NCBI GenBank assembly: GCA_040758355.1
Contig: JBFLWF010000004.1
Coordinates: 32,001 to 96,000 of the forward strand
Source of the DNA: Nitrospirota bacterium
Lineage (GTDB): Bacteria > Nitrospirota > Thermodesulfovibrionia > Thermodesulfovibrionales > Dissulfurispiraceae
Direction: 5' to 3'
Length of the DNA stretch: 64,000 nt
How positions within the stretch are numbered: position 1 is the first letter of the stretch; every line of letters begins with the position of its first letter. Of the stretch, positions 27,001 to 36,000 are shown one piece after another. Made by a program: the position numbers.

Positions 27001-30000
27001 ATTGTCTCAATAGCATCGCCATTTCATCCCGCTGTTTCCTATGCATCAGACAGCAATGGAACAAAGATCTTCACTCTCGATGTATGCAACGCATCGAGCC
27101 CATCCCTGTCCGTAAATGCAGATATGCCGTTCGTTTACGAATGTCCGTGTAAACATATCTCTTTAGGATTTGCCAGCTTTTATGAAGGGTTAAACCCTGT
27201 ATTCAATACATTCCTTGTTGTCTTCCAGAAAGAATATCCTCCGGAAGTATAATCTGTAGTTCCGAAGTTGCGAGTTGTTTTTCATCTTACAGGCATTTCT
27301 GTGTCTGTATTTCGGATTGTCCATTAGGACATTCCTCCCCGTTTGACTCGGCTCCACTTCGGGAATCAACTAAATCCATTTAAATTAATTTCTGGGGTGG
27401 AGCCACCTTTTTAAAAAATCATAATCAGGAGGGTTGGATGAGGTGTTTTCTATTGATATTATTATCTGTAGTGCTTTCTTGCAGCATTGTATTTGCAGAA
27501 GAAGCAAAGAAGCTTGAGGAAGTTGTTGTAACCGCAACGAGGACCGAGAGAACAACGGAAGAAATTCCAGCAGGCGTAAGCGTTGTGACAAAAGAGGATA
27601 TAAAAGACATGAGGATGTTCGGAGTAAGAGAGGCGCTTACAGGCATTGCGGGCGTACAGTCAGAGACAAAGAACGGAGGCTATGATGCGCGACTGATAAT
27701 AAGGGGCGCAGGCCTTAAGGCGAGATACGGCATAAGAGAGATCATGGTACTCCTTGACGGTGTTCCTCTCACAGATCCGGATGGCATGACAAATCTTGAT
27801 CGTGTCGACACCCAGCTTGTTGACAGGGTTGATGTTGTGAAAGGGCCAAATTCGACTCTTTACGGCGCAAATGCAGCAGGCGGCGTTATCAACATCATTA
27901 CCAAAAACCCATTTGAAGAAATAAAAAGCGTAAAAATCGGTTACGGCAGCGACAATACGCAGTTGTATAACCTGATTTACGGGACAAGTTTTGGCGGAAA
28001 AACTTATATCACGCTTTCCGGAAGCAGGCGCTCAACCGATTCATGGAGGGCATGGAATGAGTTCAGCACCAATCAGGCAGGCTTGAAACTCGGACACATG
28101 TTTGATGACAAAACCCTGCTTGAGGCGAACATCAGTTATACAAAGTCCGATTTTCAGCTACCGGGCGTGCTTACAAAGCCACAGTTTGACAGCGATATCA
28201 CACAGCTTACCAGCGAGAGGTGGAGACATTCCGGCAGGTACAGCGAGGTATTAAATACAAGCCTGAAGTTTGAAAAAGAGATTGGCAATGTGAAACTGAA
28301 GCCTCTTGCCTATTTCCAGTCATGGCATCATTACCATCCGGTTACGGCATTTATCAATGACGGAGGAGCAAATGTCTATGGCGCGGATATTCAGCTTGAC
28401 ATAAAGCACAAGATAGCAGGCATGGAAGGGGTGCTGACAGCAGGAATTACAGGACAGATAGATGAGGCGAGCGGAGATAAATATACTTATAGGGATGTGT
28501 TTCCATCTACCGCAAGATATCCTTCCACAGCAACCCTTGAGTATACCCTTTCCGATGAAAAGGATGCGCTTGCTGAAAAGAGCAGCGATACTACAACGAA
28601 GTGGGGTATTTATCTTCAGGAATCAATAAGGCCGTCTGATAAATGGATAATAGACCTCGGAGTGAGATACGACGAGGTGGGTTTTGATATCAGTACGGAC
28701 ACTTATATAAAGTATCGCTATGCCCCTCCTGGCGCTCCTAACAGGTATTATGCGAGCACAGAGACAATCAGAAGAGATAAGACTTTTGACTATGTGAGTC
28801 CGAGAGCAGGTGTTGTTTATAAGCTGAGCAAGATTTTTAATCTCTACGGCAATATTTCGACAGGGTTTCAGACTCCACAGTCATCTGAACTCAGCACCAG
28901 TTCAGACCTGAATCCTTCCGTGACTACCAATTACGAGGCAGGAGTAAAGGCAAGGTTTGACGGAGGACACAGTTTTGACCTTTCCCTATTTCATGCAATA
29001 GTGGATGACGAGATCGTGCAGATAAGGCAGCCTGACACCAGCACGACCTACAGCAATGCAGGCGAAACAAGAAAGAGGGGTGTTGAATTATCGGGCAGGG
29101 CGCAGGTATTAAAAGGTCTTTTCCTCGGGGGCTCTTATACATACAGCGATTTTAAATTTGTGAAGTTTACAGAGGTAATAAGCGGCGTCAACAGGAGCAG
29201 GGATGACAACAGATACCCTTATATCCCGATGCATCAATACAGCCTGTATGCTTACTACAAACACCCATCAGGCTTCAAGTTCAAGGTCGATACCTACACA
29301 TGGGGGAAATATTTTGTGGACAATGCAAACTCCGATACTTATAAAGGATATACATTCCTTACAAATGCCCTTATCGGATATGAGATGAAGAATTTTGATA
29401 TAACCTTTGATGTAAACAATGTCTTTGACAAGAGGTATGCCATGGAGGTGACAAAGGAGACAGACTTGAAATATCGGCCTGGAGCGCCTATGTCAATGAT
29501 GGGAAGGATAACATATAAATTTTAAAAAGGGGGATTCAGTAAGGGGGACAAAGTCCCCCTTACTGATTATGGAAATGCGATTCTTTTTGAGTTTAGTTGT
29601 AGTTTTAATTGCAGTGGTCAATTCTGAAGGAAATTTCGGAAGGGGGACAAAGTCCCCCTTCCGTGCAGAGGCTATGTTCCTCTCCGAAAATCCTCCTGCC
29701 GGACATTCAGGCGGCCATAAAGAGCACAGGGGTGGAGAAAGAAGCGATAGGAAAAGCGGGCAAAGAGGCGGCGAACATTCGGAGCACAGGGCTGCGCCCG
29801 TAAAAAAGTTTTATCTCAATATTCATGACCTTTCTGACAGCGCAAAGGCTTATGTCCTGCGGCCTGATGGCTCAATAACAGAAGGCAGATTAAGCCATGA
29901 CGAAGGCGCATGGAGCGTTACATTCGATACAAAACCGATGGACGGCTCGATGGATGGGGTTTTTAATGTCTATGTAGTGGACAAGCAGGTTTCCGACGGA

Positions 30001-33000: not shown

Positions 33001-36000
33001 GAACACGCTGGACAGTTTCCATATGCTGCTTGAAAGGACAGGCACAAAAAAAGAAGACGTAGCCTATATCACATCCACCGGTTACGGCAGGAAGCTTTTT
33101 AAAGAGGCTGATGAGTCCATAAGTGAGATAACCGCAAATGCCGCAGGCGCCAGAATTATCGGAAAAGATTACGGAGCGGTGCGGACAATCATCAATATAG
33201 GAGGACAGGACTCAAAGGTGATACTCATCGATGATGCAGGCCATGTAAAAAACTTTACAATGAATGACAAGTGTGCCGCAGGCACAGGAAGATTCCTTGA
33301 AATGACTGCGAGGAATTTAGGTGTGGAGGTTGATGAACTGGGGACAATGCACCTGAACGCAAAAGATATTCCCTTAACCATCAACAGCACCTGCACTGTC
33401 TTTGCCGAATCAGAGATAATAAGCCTTTTGGCAAACGGACATGAAAGGGAGGAGATTATAGCAGGAGTTCACTATTCCATTGCAAGGAGGATAGTGCGCC
33501 TTGCAAAGCGGATAGGCATTGAAGACATGGTCTTTTTTGACGGCGGCCCGGCTATGAACAGGGGGCTTGTTGCAGCCATGGAAGACGAGTTGATGAGAAG
33601 TATCATAGTGCCTGAGATACCCCAAATTACCACTGCACTCGGTGCAGCAGTCATTGCCAGAGAAGCTTTTCTTGCAGAAGGAGAGAAGGTTCATGCATGA
33701 TGCAGCAGGTCTGTTTTTATTAGGACTGCTTTACGGGACAACCGTCTGCAGCCTCACATGCCTGCCCTATCTCGGCCCTTATCTTTTAAGCACCGGCAGG
33801 GGATTTACGGACGGCATGAAATCATCGCTTTTGTTTCTGTCAGGAAAACTGATCTGTTATATGTTTATAGGAGGACTTTCCGCATATCTCGGGAACGTCC
33901 TGATGCTTGACAAAAGCATGTCTGCAAAATTGATTATGGGCATAGCAATTATTGCCTTCGGCCTCTCCATCCCTTTTGTGAGCAGGGGAGAATGTTGCAA
34001 TAAAAGGCAGGTTATGGGTAAAAACATTTCTCTGTTTCTGGTAGGCATATCTACAAGCCTTATACCATGCCCTCCGCTTGTTACAATGTTTCTGCTCGCT
34101 GCAAAGAACGGCTCTTTAATCTCCGGGATCTCTTATGGCCTGATTTATGGATTGGGATTAACCATTTCTCCGCTTATTATTGCAGGCGGGGGATTATCTG
34201 TAATTTCAAAAATTATCAAGACAGAGGTCAAGGGCTTTGTACCATATCTGCAGGGCATCTCTGTAGTGATGATAGTGATAATGGGTGCAAGAATACTTAT
34301 TTAGGAGGTTTGTATAAAAAATGGAATGGCTTAACAGTATAGTCGATTATGGTGTGATAGGGTTTCTGACCCTATTGAGCATTGTAGCAATTGCTATAGC
34401 AGTTGAACGGCGTCTTGTCTACAAAAACATCAGGCTTGAGGATTTCTCCGACAAAAAGGAACTTGAGCTTGCTCTTACGAAAAAGCTGCATATAATAGCC
34501 ACAATCGGCAGCAATGCGCCGTATATTGGTTTGCTCGGAACCGTGTTGGGGATTATGGTCACCTTCTACACTATGGGGCAGGAAGGCTTTATGGCAACAG
34601 GAAAGATAATGCTGGGCCTTGCCCTTGCATTGAAGGCAACTGCAGTTGGTCTGCTTGTTGCGATACCTGCTGTTACGATTTACAACTTTCTTTTAAGGAG
34701 AGTGAAGGTGCTCATGATGCAGTGGGAGATAAAGTTTGCAAAGGAGGAGGAAAAATCCCAATAACCAATCTTCAAAATAACAAATAAATTCTAAATGTCA
34801 AATTCTAATAATCAAACATTTGGAGTTTGGAGTTTATTTGGATTTTGTGATTTGTAGTTTGGGATTTGTTTTTAGATATGGAAGATAAAGAGTTTGATTA
34901 TATGAATGTCATCCCACTCGTGGATGTGATGCTTGTGCTCCTCACCATCGTGCTTACAACATCCACATTTATAGCCACAGGGGTTATCCCTGTTGAACTG
35001 CCAAAGGCATCAAAGGGCAGCGAGGAGACGTTAAAGACATTGACTATAGAGATAGACAAAAGGGGCGTTATATACCTGAATTCAAGGATTGTGTCAATTA
35101 ATGATATAAGGGAAAACATGAAGTCAATGGACAAATCCACGCCAATATTAATAAGGGCTGACAGGGATATTGCCCTTCAGGTCTTTGTAAATGTGCTCGA
35201 TGTCGTGAAAAACCTCGGATTTAAGAGGGTCAGCCTTCAGACAGAGGAGAGGAGATGACCCATCAATCTAAGGGATTACGGTTCTCCCTTATTCTCCATG
35301 CAGTGGTGATTGCATTTATCATCGCTTTCAGCAGCTCCATTGTACCGATAAACAAACCCATTGTTATCGACTTTAATATAGAGGATTCAGCCGATGCACC
35401 AAAAAAAAGCTCAAAGGAACTGCCTGCTCCTAAACCTGCAGTCAGAAGCCAGAAGCCTGAGGTCAAGGAACAGAAAAAAGAAATAGAAAAACCAGCTCCG
35501 GTAGCTGACGTGCATCCCACTCCGATAACAGAGTCTCAGGTGCCGATTCCTTCGGTTCAGCCACGCACCGAGCAAGTTGTTGCTAAAAATGAAGGACATA
35601 CCGCTGTATCTTCAAGAACAGACGCTTCTTCTGGCAGTAAAAAAGATACCGATGCAGTTGGAAATTCGGAAGAGAAGGCGAGGATGAGATATCTCAAGGA
35701 GCATTTTGGATATATAAGGGACACAATAATGAAGAATCTCTCTTACCCGCACATGGCAAGGAGGATGGGTTGGGAAGGCAGGGTGACAGTATCTTTTATT
35801 GTCTATGAAAGCGGACATGTGGAGAATATAAAAATATTAGAGAGTTCAGGATTTGGAGTACTTGATAAAAACGCAATGGAGACCATAAAAAGGGTGTGTC
35901 CGCTTCCCAAACCGCCTGTCAGGGCGGAATTGATAATGCCTATAGTGTACAGGTTGGAGTAAGGAAATGGTATAATTATAAATGACATTCCACAAAAAAC

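Follow-up and report, generated by a model that had tools for sequence, protein, structure and literature searches.

Nine same-strand genes in the window (the whole stretch of 64,000 nucleotides of Nitrospirota DNA analysed here) are best read, with what we judge to be an even chance of being right, as a TonB-dependent operon for the reductive acquisition of a trace metal, most likely copper in this organism. This reading is built on the gene content and order, their wide conservation, the cofactor-binding motifs and the fold of one of the proteins (X), each of which is documented below. If true, it would give a functional context to the double-cubane reductase, whose natural job is unknown; the suggestion in the genome-wide survey's note that this context would be the first holds within the literature searched, where no paper discussing this operon was found.

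Layout and conservation of the operon

A check of open reading frames and profiles across the window bears out the nine-gene block described by the survey, with all ORFs in place on the + strand and mostly overlapping. They are given here with the features upstream of them:

22998-25460, + strand: CopA2/CcoI-like Cu P-type ATPase (TIGR01511 556 bits; HMA and HMA_2 domains)
25450-25887, + strand: anchored 145-aa protein with an MPGMYMG motif (translation)
25859-26563, + strand: second DsbD_2 protein (ORF end overlapping the 145-aa ORF)
26935..27252, + strand: x105, small exported leader-type ORF (signal peptide, Cys, Pro-Pro C-terminus)
27253..27437, + strand: structured leader RNA, the x105-to-receptor interval (predicted fold)
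27438-29525, + strand: TonB-dependent receptor, 695 aa (PF00593 1e-48, Plug 2.7e-24)
29569-30603, + strand: X, 344-aa periplasmic DUF4198-fold protein (sub-threshold DUF4198, model fold)
30590-31582, + strand: F, NapH/CcoG-like membrane FeS protein (Fer4_5 1.2e-12; Fer4_10, 2x[4Fe-4S] ferredoxin domain)
31572-32888, + strand: DCCP, double-cubane-cluster protein (HGD-D 1.4e-100; NCBIfam NF040772 370.6 bits, cut-off 350)
32885-33700, + strand: ACT, archerase-type ATPase activator, DCCP-R-like (BcrAD_BadFG 5.2e-60; TIGR00241 252.3 bits, cut-off 125.4)
33693-34304 (ORF from 33642), + strand: S, DsbD_2 six-helix membrane protein (PF13386 2.1e-16)
34321-34764, + strand: ExbB (PF01618)
34866-35258, + strand: ExbD (PF02472)
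35255-35962, + strand: TonB (PF03544)

The receptor and X are separated by 43 nt, and the junctions that follow measure -14 (X/F), -11 (F/DCCP), -4 (DCCP/ACT), -59 or, with the later start, -8 (ACT/S), 16 (S/ExbB), 101 (ExbB/ExbD) and -4 nt (ExbD/TonB); the ATG at 33693 is a likelier start of S than position 33642.

The 3 related loci counted by the survey were a large undercount, as the species genomes hold 150 relatives, of which the best 80 are used for the counts that follow; their DCCPs are 52-65% identical and they cover at least 5 phyla. Taking as denominators the loci among these best 80 of 150 with enough DNA to judge each neighbour, X lies ahead of DCCP in 69/69 and F in 75/75, the activator follows DCCP in 70 of 74, S is detected by BLAST in 59 of 67 (L075 adds one by Pfam) and a TonB receptor is adjacent on the same strand in 47 of 62. 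The phylum's 4 orthologous loci all share one gene order, the ExbB-ExbD-TonB order is kept in G187, G024 and G257, and dedicated ExbBD-TonB sets are common among operon loci. Because gene order is conserved across phyla, a chance grouping is excluded, and the same conserved order supports the fixed link proposed earlier between the DCCP/activator pair and a TonB-linked metal-uptake gene set. The ExbB-ExbD-TonB set (TIGR02805 above its cut-off) is the dedicated energiser of the receptor.

Among the 38 loci with full flanks, 9 have no receptor within 10 kb of the core, which favours an alternative that we consider improbable, namely that X-F-DCCP-ACT is a NosR/NosH-like device sending low-potential electrons to the periplasm, with TonB receptors as frequent but secondary neighbours. 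Such a device would hold metal centres or cysteines of the periplasm in the reduced state, as in the reductive activation of nitrous-oxide reductase, an enzyme that needs a strong reductant; F shares the Fer4_5 superfamily with NosR and NosH, and the nos cluster of the window uses such proteins. Against this stand the adjacent same-strand receptors and dedicated ExbBD-TonB sets counted above, the fold of X, which is that of metal-capture proteins, and the fact that nosZ was not found in 3 of the 5 operon genomes of the phylum.

In the uptake reading that we prefer, the receptor, powered by its own ExbB-ExbD-TonB, would bring a metal complex into the periplasm, where the membrane-anchored DUF4198-fold protein X would capture it; F, which has a conserved site of four Cys plus His on its predicted periplasmic side, would handle and reduce it, and S would probably admit the thiophilic ion, Cu(I), to the cytoplasm. 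DCCP and its ATPase, bolted onto the cytoplasmic ferredoxin domain of F, would use ATP to inject electrons of very low potential, which would run from the activator [4Fe-4S] cluster through the double cubane and the clusters of F to the bound metal or the ligand of that metal. In this organism, copper would go on to the neighbouring CcoI-type ATPase and to the Sco and NosL chaperones serving nitrous-oxide reductase.

The double-cubane protein and its predicted membrane partner

F is modelled as a four-helix membrane protein; it bears a CX3CP and a CX2CP motif as well as a 2x[4Fe-4S] ferredoxin domain, and in 68 sequences C47, C58, C101, C105, C173, C176, C227, C230 and 8 ferredoxin Cys are invariant. 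By charge and by analogy with NapH, the two motifs and the ferredoxin domain should be cytoplasmic, and four conserved Cys and a His are predicted in loops facing the periplasm. The four-helix Fer4_5 core, the CX3CP-type motifs and the cytoplasmic 2x[4Fe-4S] domain are common to NapH, NosH and NosR; F differs from these in the extra conserved Cys pairs and His of its predicted periplasmic loops and in its predicted DCCP partner, and scores 69 bits against the NapH model TIGR02163, below the cut-off of 213.

DCCP, a single-copy gene in this genome, matches the Carboxydothermus-type reference from C. hydrogenoformans (7yyl/6eno) with E 1e-69 over residues 31-425, and seven Cys (75, 94, 113, 143, 310, 344 and 377) are invariant in 71 orthologs. 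With the C. hydrogenoformans DCCP/DCCP-R pair (PDB 6ENO, 7YYL; PMC7317905, PMC9351452) it has in common the family by NCBIfam cut-off, the 7-Cys motif as taken from the Haft preprint (10.1101/2022.07.06.499078), the N-terminal extension that narrows the channel in the reference protein, and an adjoining archerase-type ATPase with two cluster Cys. Identity is ~35%, an estimate from the printed alignment, and the protein differs in being fixed in an envelope/transport operon with predicted docking on a membrane FeS protein. ACT aligns with HadI (4eht, E 7e-66) and DCCP-R (7yyl_E, E 2e-45), and its only two Cys (130 and 170) sit in conserved cluster-ligand motifs of the HadI alignment.

Complex models of F with DCCP scored 0.72, 0.74 and 0.71, against 0.00 in 3 controls, with at least 92% of contacts agreeing between runs and a partner pLDDT of at least 84; the score mark is reached by 116/157 solved complexes and 2/215 mismatched pairs, a calibration that is only rough here since our own alignments were used. 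The modelled interface sets F 252-263 and 290-296, which carry the ferredoxin Cys motifs, against DCCP 318-341, beside the ligands C342/C344. This is a different face of DCCP from the DCCP-R binding surface, which PMC9351452 places at the C-terminal helix, the D400-D405 loop and N111. Residues at the interface set the F-linked orthologs apart: their 35-residue consensus has just 7 residues in common with 25 paralogs lacking F, in which these positions are also less conserved (0.55 vs 0.73 elsewhere). The model backs direct binding of DCCP to the cytoplasmic ferredoxin domain of F and fits electrons passing from DCCP to F, but it cannot tell direction, and we would put that direction at no better or worse than evens.

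The same docking is equally compatible with tethering, and a second role for DCCP, which we regard as unlikely but worth weighing, is that of terminal enzyme of the same uptake system, reducing, on the cytoplasmic side, an imported small molecule or the ligand of the metal and so freeing the metal. Its substrate could be a chelator containing a triple or N-N/N-O bond, or else a compound of sulfur or selenium or an organometal species, and F would only hold DCCP at the membrane beside the entry point, or feed electrons towards the activator. According to PMC7317905, C. hydrogenoformans DCCP reduces small molecules (acetylene), is inhibited by CO and cyanide, and has a cluster reached through narrow channels; the channel-narrowing extension is kept here. 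The Haft preprint (10.1101/2022.07.06.499078) connects DCCPs with the uptake of organometal or selenium compounds, and at its SAO locus DCCP genes likewise adjoin an importer of metal-containing cargo. That locus, from Gram-positive and delta-proteobacterial anaerobes, differs in its ABC importer and selenoproteins and in lacking TonB, X, F and S; the preprint's text has 0 occurrences of "TonB" and of "DsbD". X also retains Glu, Asp, Arg, Trp and Tyr in place of any invariant His, Cys or Met in the ortholog alignment, as would suit an organic ligand rather than a soft metal. Counting against a terminal enzyme, no ABC or MFS transporter is conserved in the operon core and S is small, with six helices; the interface places the [4Fe-4S] motifs of F against the double-cubane ligand region, as electron transfer expects; and sister operons (receptor-X'-F'-DsbD_2) work without DCCP.

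The survey had read the operon as an ATP-driven reductase acting on a TonB-imported metal, with electrons crossing both membrane proteins. Its TonB link and the passage through the NapH-like F gain from the conserved order and the docking, whereas DsbD_2 as electron conduit finds no support. S is BLAST-absent in 8 of the 67 loci (of which L075 has DsbD_2 by Pfam), and its conserved C36xxxC40, C118 and P-C143 (64 sequences, numbered from the 33642 start) include the CxxxC and PC motifs that are features of the DsbD_2 family. Because these motifs are family-wide and fusions of DsbD_2 to HMA metal-binding domains are described from a copper (CsoR) regulon (PMC4938975), a permease for a thiophilic metal is the better guess for S.

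Copper or another metal

Copper is in our judgement slightly favoured as the cargo, although a very low potential is not required to reduce Cu(II) to Cu(I) and the ATP spend is then unexplained. Directly upstream of the operon lie nosZ, NosD/F/Y, Sco, a TlpA-like protein, 2 NosL and the Cu ATPase, and the survey allowed that this might be coincidence. It is probably not, because copper-trafficking and cuproenzyme genes adjoin the operon in other lineages: in a Melioribacteraceae locus (L113) the operon stands between ccoNO-ccoP and nosZ, and PCuAC, Sco or TlpA-like genes are neighbours in Pseudomonadota; across the best 80 of 150 loci these three occur at 5, 2 and 5. At least one queried copper gene is near only 12 of these 80 loci, and as those 12 are partly related, the independent cases number perhaps 6-7. 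Among the genomes sampled from the phylum, nosZ is found in just 2/5 with the operon (16/396 others), so it is not required by the operon; COX1-family genes are in 5/5 against 195/396, a weak association, and the family also includes copper-free NO reductases.

The upstream group of Cu ATPase, 145-aa protein and second DsbD_2 may carry out the following step of this pathway. In the review PMC7558416, the CcoA-CcoG-CcoI route to cbb3 oxidase in Rhodobacter capsulatus consists of an importer, a Fer4_5 protein and a CopA2-type ATPase, and CcoG, the cupric reductase of the route, carries two [4Fe-4S] clusters and a periplasmic Ig-like domain and has no known physiological donor. The analogous parts here are S, F with X as a separate anchored beta-sandwich, and the upstream ATPase. 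In contrast, F gave no CcoG or FixG_C family match in profile searches, the importer is DsbD_2 rather than MFS, and the set is extended by a TonB receptor and an ATP-driven reductase; the action of CcoG is cytoplasmic.

X has a signal peptide, two beta-sandwiches, a C-terminal membrane helix and a conserved cytoplasmic tail (consensus RRRR..P..EVRFDE). The survey assigned it no family, and this needs correction: it has a sub-threshold DUF4198 match (23.4 bits, cut-off 34), and its model (pLDDT 85.9) best matches Zcp of Neisseria gonorrhoeae (9mhl, E 8e-11, TM 0.63 on target; series 9MHI-9MHO) and the Ni-binding IsDUF4198 of Ideonella sakaiensis (9gcb), both periplasmic and often encoded beside TonB receptor genes. 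X differs from these in falling below the Pfam cut-off, in its membrane anchor and conserved tail, and in having no invariant three-His site. Its best-kept candidate ligand is C160 (49/55), followed by H50 (38/55) and H158, H164 and H196 (36/55 each); the His-rich stretch noted by the survey is not conserved among 54 orthologs.

Characterised DUF4198 proteins bind Zn or Ni (PMC12663993 and PMC12537917), and the cargo could conceivably be iron, as a very-low-potential ferric chelate, or else nickel, cobalt or zinc, which would make the copper genes coincidental or lineage-specific; we think this unlikely. The receptor passes the siderophore-receptor subfamily model TIGR01783 (234.2 bits, cut-off 223.5), and ferric complexes of so low a potential would give a reason for an ATP-driven reductant. 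Extra receptors and PepSY_TM proteins, the known members of which reduce ferrisiderophores, flank 8 loci and would suit iron as well; there is also one case of a CDF transporter (L103) and one of a Nitro_FeMo-Co gene (L115). On the other side, PepSY_TM proteins also serve copper (CrpH, PMC13038864), there is no riboswitch in the window or in 19/19 loci scanned, no feo, znu, nik or cbi gene is among 50 annotated co-directional neighbours, and in 62 upstream regions no Fur, Zur or NikR-like box rises above background, which is a weak test that used consensus motifs. Copper genes are the only recurring metal theme near operon loci. Operon receptors are of mixed subfamilies and form the least conserved part between loci (22-67% identity). 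The nearest solved chains of this receptor are YncD/PqqU (E 8e-45), and among the solved-chain matches listed for 3 operon receptors none is a copper receptor (no listed name is OprC).

Candidate leader peptide and leader RNA

The 105-residue x105 has a signal peptide, a conserved LDVC, a second Cys and the C-terminus FQK-E-Y-P-P-E-V-stop. Homologs lie directly upstream of the receptor in L042, L046, L043 (two copies) and L039, and every one ends in [RHY]-P-P plus 2-4 residues. The region 27225-27445 folds at -72.8 kcal/mol (z -4.5; 0/200 shuffles as stable), the predicted fold pairing the receptor Shine-Dalgarno and start codon with CCUCCCC near 27335. A simple scan gave no intrinsic terminator between x105 and the receptor, and the Pro-Pro codons have no consistent pairing with the ribosome site across four loci.

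These features make x105 a candidate metal-sensing, ribosome-stalling leader peptide that probably sets operon expression, its Pro-Pro end and structured RNA resembling the copper-sensing leaders CruR and CutF. As x105 has no Pfam family, and is not a DUF2946 member by Pfam, that likeness is by features only. The CruR-CrtA-CrpH system of Bordetella pertussis (PMC9426467, PMC12914433, PMC13038864) likewise has a Cys-bearing leader ORF that ends in a Pro-Pro arrest, and its TonB-dependent importer of chelated copper and membrane reductase have parallels here; its reductase differs, being a heme-containing PepSY_TM protein that takes no ATP. None of the 6 supplementary files of the CrtA paper contains the terms dehydratase, BadF, 4Fe-4S, DUF4198 or activase. 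Operons of the CruR-CrtA-CrpH type sometimes hold ExbBD-TonB, PCuAC or ScoI.

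Gene set and conservation of the operon

The nine plus-strand open reading frames that the genome-wide survey's note had claimed at 27438..35962 are all present there, and encode a receptor, a 344-aa protein (X), a NapH/CcoG-like membrane FeS protein (F), the double-cubane-cluster protein (DCCP), its archerase-type ATPase activator (ACT), a DsbD_2 membrane protein (S), ExbB, ExbD and TonB. Adjacent genes overlap or lie at most 16 nt apart, except for gaps of 43 and 101 nt, with S most likely starting at the ATG at 33693 in an 8-nt overlap with ACT. Pfam and NCBIfam profiles identify the receptor as TonB-dependent (TIGR01783, 234.2 bits vs. 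a cut-off of 223.5). The DCCP is single-copy in the host genome (2.77 Mb, 99% complete).

The whole DCCP scores 370.6 bits against NF040772, above the curated cut-off of 350, and its residues 31–425 align (E 1e-69) with the DCCP structure from Carboxydothermus hydrogenoformans. Its cysteine spacing (C75-x18-C94-x18-C113-x29-C143-x166-C310-x33-C344-x32-C377) differs from the published 7-Cys motif CX19CX18-19CX29CX166-170CX32-34CX32C, comprising six ligands and one cluster-adjacent Cys (Haft preprint 10.1101/2022.07.06.499078), only in a first spacer one residue shorter than printed. Each of the seven Cys is invariant across 71 orthologs and aligns with its counterpart in the Carboxydothermus protein. 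The adjacent ACT matches TIGR00241 (252.3 bits vs. a cut-off of 125.4) and DCCP-R (E 2e-45), and has only two Cys, 130 and 170, both in cluster-ligand motifs common to HadI and DCCP-R, as expected of an archerase that binds a bridging [4Fe-4S] cluster. By score, 7-Cys motif and adjacent archerase the window protein belongs to the double-cubane-cluster proteins, with cluster and activity predicted from sequence.

A DCCP-like gene occurs in 46 of 401 sampled genomes of the phylum, and only four of these genes are orthologs (57–62% identity), all with the identical order receptor-X-F-DCCP-ACT-S(-ExbB-ExbD-TonB). None of four same-genus genomes has an ortholog. The remaining DCCP-like genes of this sample are a ~35%-identical paralog, which in the four loci examined has an activator alongside and lacks X, F and S. 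A profile scan of species genomes gave 150 relatives, and we analysed the best 80 of these, all 52–65% identical (by record title 7 Nitrospirota, 1 Nitrospinia, 5 Desulfobacterota, 3 Bacteroidota-type, 1 Calditrichota and 63 Pseudomonadota, the last including Gallionella, Sideroxydans, Sulfuricella, Thiodiazotropha, Thiohalomonadaceae, Azonexus, Dechloromonas and Azovibrio), counting neighbors only at loci with enough DNA. Within this best 80 of 150, F lies upstream of DCCP in 75/75 loci and X before F in 69/69, while ACT follows in 70/74 and S, as detected by BLAST, in 59/67 (L075, one of the 8 BLAST-negative loci, has S by Pfam). A same-strand receptor adjoins the core in 47 of 62 loci, and in four more (L051, L062, L100, L108) a divergent receptor lies next to it; the receptor is the most variable part, at 22–67% identity. 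On these counts the constant core is X-F-DCCP(-ACT).

Four related loci (L067, L089, L100, L109) carry, beside the DCCP operon, a sister module in which a counterpart of F (F') is followed by a DsbD_2 gene. Those of L067 and L100 are preceded by a receptor and a ~270–310-aa X-like ORF (X'), that of L109 has a receptor, and that of L100 has ExbB-ExbD-TonB downstream. F' keeps every Cys of F, those in the putative periplasmic loops included, and differs from F at the C-terminal helix contacts of the docking model described below. DCCP and ACT are absent from all four sister modules, and thus the DCCP-ACT pair was apparently inserted into an uptake system of older design, made up of receptor, X, F and S.

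Tandem duplications occur in L097 (163-13552; receptor-X-F-DCCP followed directly by receptor-X-F-DCCP-ACT-S) and L066 (X-F, then receptor-receptor-X-F-DCCP). In a same-family genome (L036, G202:C1, 8497-17234), a ~33%-identical paralog DCCP-ACT lies divergently beside a receptor 65% identical to that of the window. Genes for another Fer4_5 protein, for TonB and for a DUF2318 protein with 55% identity to its window counterpart come after this receptor.

Membrane proteins and the predicted F-DCCP complex

F is the best-conserved protein of the operon set (61% mean column identity) and consists of a Fer4_5 membrane module plus a 2x[4Fe-4S] ferredoxin domain, the only domains to pass Pfam cut-offs. 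On the cytoplasmic side F retains the CX3CP and CX2CP motifs along with the eight ferredoxin Cys, and in two loops that probably face the periplasm it retains C47, C58, H65, C173 and C176. Its score against the NapH/MauN family TIGR02163 is 69 bits, below the cut-off of 213.05, neither the CcoG family nor the C-terminal FixG_C Ig-like domain appears among its Pfam/NCBIfam matches, and a fold search with F gave no match at E up to 0.001. From the common Fer4_5 + 2x[4Fe-4S] architecture we infer that F may work like CcoG. S scores 60.9 bits against DsbD_2 (PF13386; Pfam gathering score 24.9) and keeps C36xxxC40 in helix 1, C118, and P-C143 in a later helix, all conserved in 64 sequences. The CxxxC and P-C motifs are general DsbD_2 features, present too in the window's second DsbD_2 protein, and no paper naming PF13386 was found in the literature searched.

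When F (68-row alignment) and DCCP (71 rows) were modeled together as two chains, the scores were 0.72, 0.74 and 0.71, compared to 0.00 in 3/3 controls. At least 92% of contacts recur between runs, and the partner pLDDT is at least 84. The docking mark is reached by 116/157 solved complexes and 2/215 mismatched pairs, a calibration that is only rough here because our own alignments were used. The modeling supports binding of F to DCCP, through residues 252–263 and 290–296 (the ferredoxin Cys motifs) and the C-terminal helix of F, and through residues 318–341, 203–221 and 352–362 of DCCP, directly beside the cluster ligands C342/C344. The DCCP surface used by DCCP-R in 7YYL is formed by the C-terminal helix, the D400-D405 loop and N111, according to the structural passages of PMC9351452. 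This surface differs from the predicted F surface, and therefore F, DCCP and ACT could form one chain. At the F-facing DCCP positions, only 7 of 35 consensus residues are common to 25 F-less paralogs, in which these positions are also less conserved than elsewhere (0.55 vs. 0.73). By this comparison the putative F-facing surface is specific to the F-linked ortholog group.

The main rival explanation keeps the uptake frame and makes DCCP the terminal enzyme acting on the imported ligand. The defining properties of double-cubane-cluster proteins are an [8Fe-9S] cluster and small-molecule reduction driven by ATP, and to our knowledge this widespread class with its nitrogenase-like cofactor has no known physiological substrate. 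It is possible, if rather doubtful, that DCCP and the archerase are the missing electron source of CcoG/NapH-type metalloreductases, in an ATP-energized chain that reductively strips tightly bound copper. Electrons would pass, in nitrogenase-like fashion, from the ATPase [4Fe-4S] cluster to the [8Fe-9S] double cubane and on to a membrane polyferredoxin with a periplasm-facing Cys4-His site, so that ATP-energized electrons would go into or across the inner membrane and copper could be freed from sulfide, thiolate and very tight chelates closed to ordinary reductants. If this is true, bacteria of sulfidic or microoxic habitats could metallate nitrous-oxide reductase and heme-copper oxidases, and a double-cubane enzyme would have its first physiological role, its electron acceptor being a protein-bound cluster instead of a small molecule.

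Protein X and the identity of the metal

X had been described as belonging to no family, which does not hold: it has a match to DUF4198 (PF10670) of 23.4 bits, below the Pfam gathering score of 34, and its confident model (pLDDT 85.9) has the two-beta-sandwich DUF4198 fold. Scores of 17–22 bits are obtained for the 4 X orthologs scanned and 19.3 for X' of L067. The best Foldseek match of the model is Zcp (9mhl_B, E 8.1e-11, TM 0.63 on target), together with Ni-DUF4198 (9gcb, E 6.8e-07), and the matches that follow are generic Ig tandems with TM <0.3. Both proteins were characterized as recently as 2025 (PMC12663993, PMC12537917). The metal site comprises three His in Zcp and the N-terminal His in Ni-DUF4198. 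In X the His-rich stretch is not conserved, and no invariant His was found among 55 X sequences. What is conserved is the C-terminal membrane helix, a cytoplasmic tail (consensus RRRR..P..EVRFDE) and a semi-conserved Cys/His set of candidate ligands (C160 in 49/55; H50 in 38/55; H158, H164 and H196 in 36/55 each).

The window's upstream genes of the same orientation include nosZ, genes for a split NosR-like pair, for NosD/F/Y, for Sco and for a TlpA-like protein, two NosL genes and the gene of a CopA2/CcoI-like ATPase that has HMA_2. Behind these lie the genes of a Met-motif protein and of a second DsbD_2 protein. The nos cluster has an unusual NosR arrangement (7019-10366), in which a separate 359-aa FMN_bind protein is followed by a 754-aa protein that joins a Fer4_5 membrane module to NosD. 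Two genes of the window are of interest here:

25450-25887, the Met-motif protein, 145 aa, encoded between the Cu ATPase and DsbD_2 genes in translational coupling, no Pfam family
38033-38464, same strand, DUF2318/FtrD-like lipoprotein with two Cys pairs, after a histidine kinase gene

The 145-aa protein carries a membrane helix at its N-terminus, several Cys and the motif MPGMYMG; it may be a periplasmic Cu(I) acceptor of the ATPase. In sections of PMC4938975, DUF2318 is linked to copper regulons in Firmicutes, and a predicted CsoR copper regulon is described in which DsbD_2 and DUF2318 occur in fusion with HMA domains. The DUF2318 gene opens a same-strand group (38033-40221) with a DVU0298-family HEAT protein, a 148-aa unknown and a PNPOx-like protein.

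Independent lineages repeat the copper-gene neighborhood. In L113 (Melioribacteraceae) the order is P-type ATPase, ccoNO, ccoP, a leader ORF, the operon and nosZ, and at least one queried copper-linked gene (PCuAC, Sco, TlpA-like or NosZ) lies near 12/80 loci, with PCuAC beside the TonB set in 5, Sco in 2 and a TlpA-like gene in 5; queries with NosL and the Cu ATPase gave no qualifying match near the 80 loci. Among 50 unselected co-directional neighbors, no uptake genes or regulators for iron, zinc, nickel or cobalt were found save one CDF transporter and one Nitro_FeMo-Co gene. What counts against copper is that most of the 80 loci have no copper gene nearby, and that Cu(II) reduction needs no low-potential electrons. 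A further point against copper is that nosZ was found in only 2/5 operon genomes of the phylum (vs. 16/396 others). COX1 occurs in 5/5 vs. 195/396. With so few and such closely related genomes, neither co-occurrence carries weight.

The nearest solved chains to the window receptor, whose mature form has no Cys, are YncD/PqqU, CntO, FoxA and FhuA. OprC is absent from the chains listed for it at E up to 1e-10 and from those listed for two operon receptors of other loci at E up to 1e-12. By sequence, the receptors compared thus resemble no solved copper receptor (OprC/NosA type) among the chains listed, which also counts against copper; the solved relatives are uninformative on specificity. For a second receptor (cluster c0), a search for relatives of solved structure at E up to 1e-15 gave none. 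In the Gallionellaceae-type loci L058, L065 and L088, S is followed by a PepSY_TM gene, a second receptor and TonB-ExbB-ExbD, a layout resembling the crtA-crpH copper operon. PepSY_TM genes lie within 10 kb in 8/80 loci, and MacAB-TolC-like exporter genes and cytochrome c' recur too.

Starting from the directly established gene set, conservation, cofactor motifs and fold of X, we propose that the receptor would import a metal complex and X capture it at the inner membrane, that ACT would spend ATP to charge the double cubane, from which electrons reach the F clusters, and that F would reduce the metal or its ligand and S admit the freed ion. From there, the neighboring ATPase and chaperones would carry copper on to nitrous-oxide reductase, in analogy to the CcoA-CcoG-CcoI route, for which a passage of the review PMC7558416 gives CcoG's physiological electron donor as unknown. 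If copper is indeed the metal, the electron-donor gap of CcoG-type cupric reductases would be filled, and the copper supply of nitrous-oxide reductase, which affects N2O emissions, would be explained in denitrifiers and microaerophiles of sulfidic, copper-poor settings. The cross-phylum link to an envelope system, the predicted docking partner and the carriers that are cultured strains by record title (Azovibrio restrictus DSM 23866, Azonexus caeni KACC11481 and Desulfurivibrio dismutans AMeS2) make DCCP function directly testable.

In the literature searched, partly by title or abstract, we found no published discussion of DCCP in a TonB operon, nor in the literature searched any link of a hydroxyacyl-CoA dehydratase with TonB-dependent uptake and copper. 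The source data of Supplementary Fig. 2A in PMC12537917 list BcrAD_BadFG 19 times and DsbD_2 once among DUF4198-gene neighbors, its main text makes no mention of BcrAD, BadF, dehydratase or reductase, and the relevant terms are absent from the supplements of the CrtA paper. The docking result, sister operons, counted conservation and copper-neighbor survey are new in this analysis.

A candidate copper-sensing leader

A small ORF (x105) precedes the receptor gene:

26935-27252, x105, 105 aa, 185 nt upstream of the receptor gene, with a signal peptide, a conserved LDVC, another Cys and FQKEYPPEV as its C-terminus

L039, L042, L043 (two copies) and L046 have homologs in front of the receptor gene, all closing with [RHY]PP and 2–4 more residues, and L113 has a candidate x105-like leader in the same place. 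The RNA between x105 and the receptor is unusually stable (z -4.5), and its predicted fold pairs the receptor's ribosome site. CruR and CutF are described as copper-sensing arrest leaders in PMC9426467 and PMC9973294. Of the features of such leaders, x105 shows an export signal, Cys, a Pro-rich C-terminus as a putative arrest motif, a position before the presumably regulated gene and predicted RNA structure over the ribosome site, but its Cys form neither CxxC nor CxxxC, the ending is [RHY]PP rather than RAPP, and the leader RNA pairs differently in detail from locus to locus. By this analogy x105 and its leader RNA resemble a copper-sensing arrest leader and are a candidate for one. No Pfam family matched x105 at E up to 0.01, and it does not qualify as a DUF2946 member.

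Other forms of control were considered. Riboswitch control was rejected with 0 Rfam matches in the window, and across 19 loci no riboswitch was found, the Rfam matches there being limited to tRNAs and one distant 5_ureB sRNA. In 62 upstream regions, boxes for Fur, Zur, NikR and CueR were not above background, by a weak test that used consensus motifs. A role of the Pro-Pro codons as anti-Shine-Dalgarno was likewise rejected: CCUCC is present in all five leaders, and the minimum-energy folds pair it with the ribosome site only inconsistently. L046, a Thermodesulfovibrio MAG, also has a tRNA-Sec gene (14598-14691) ~3.4 kb downstream of DCCP, a single case that is of interest because co-occurrence of DCCP with SelD has been reported (Haft preprint 10.1101/2022.07.06.499078).
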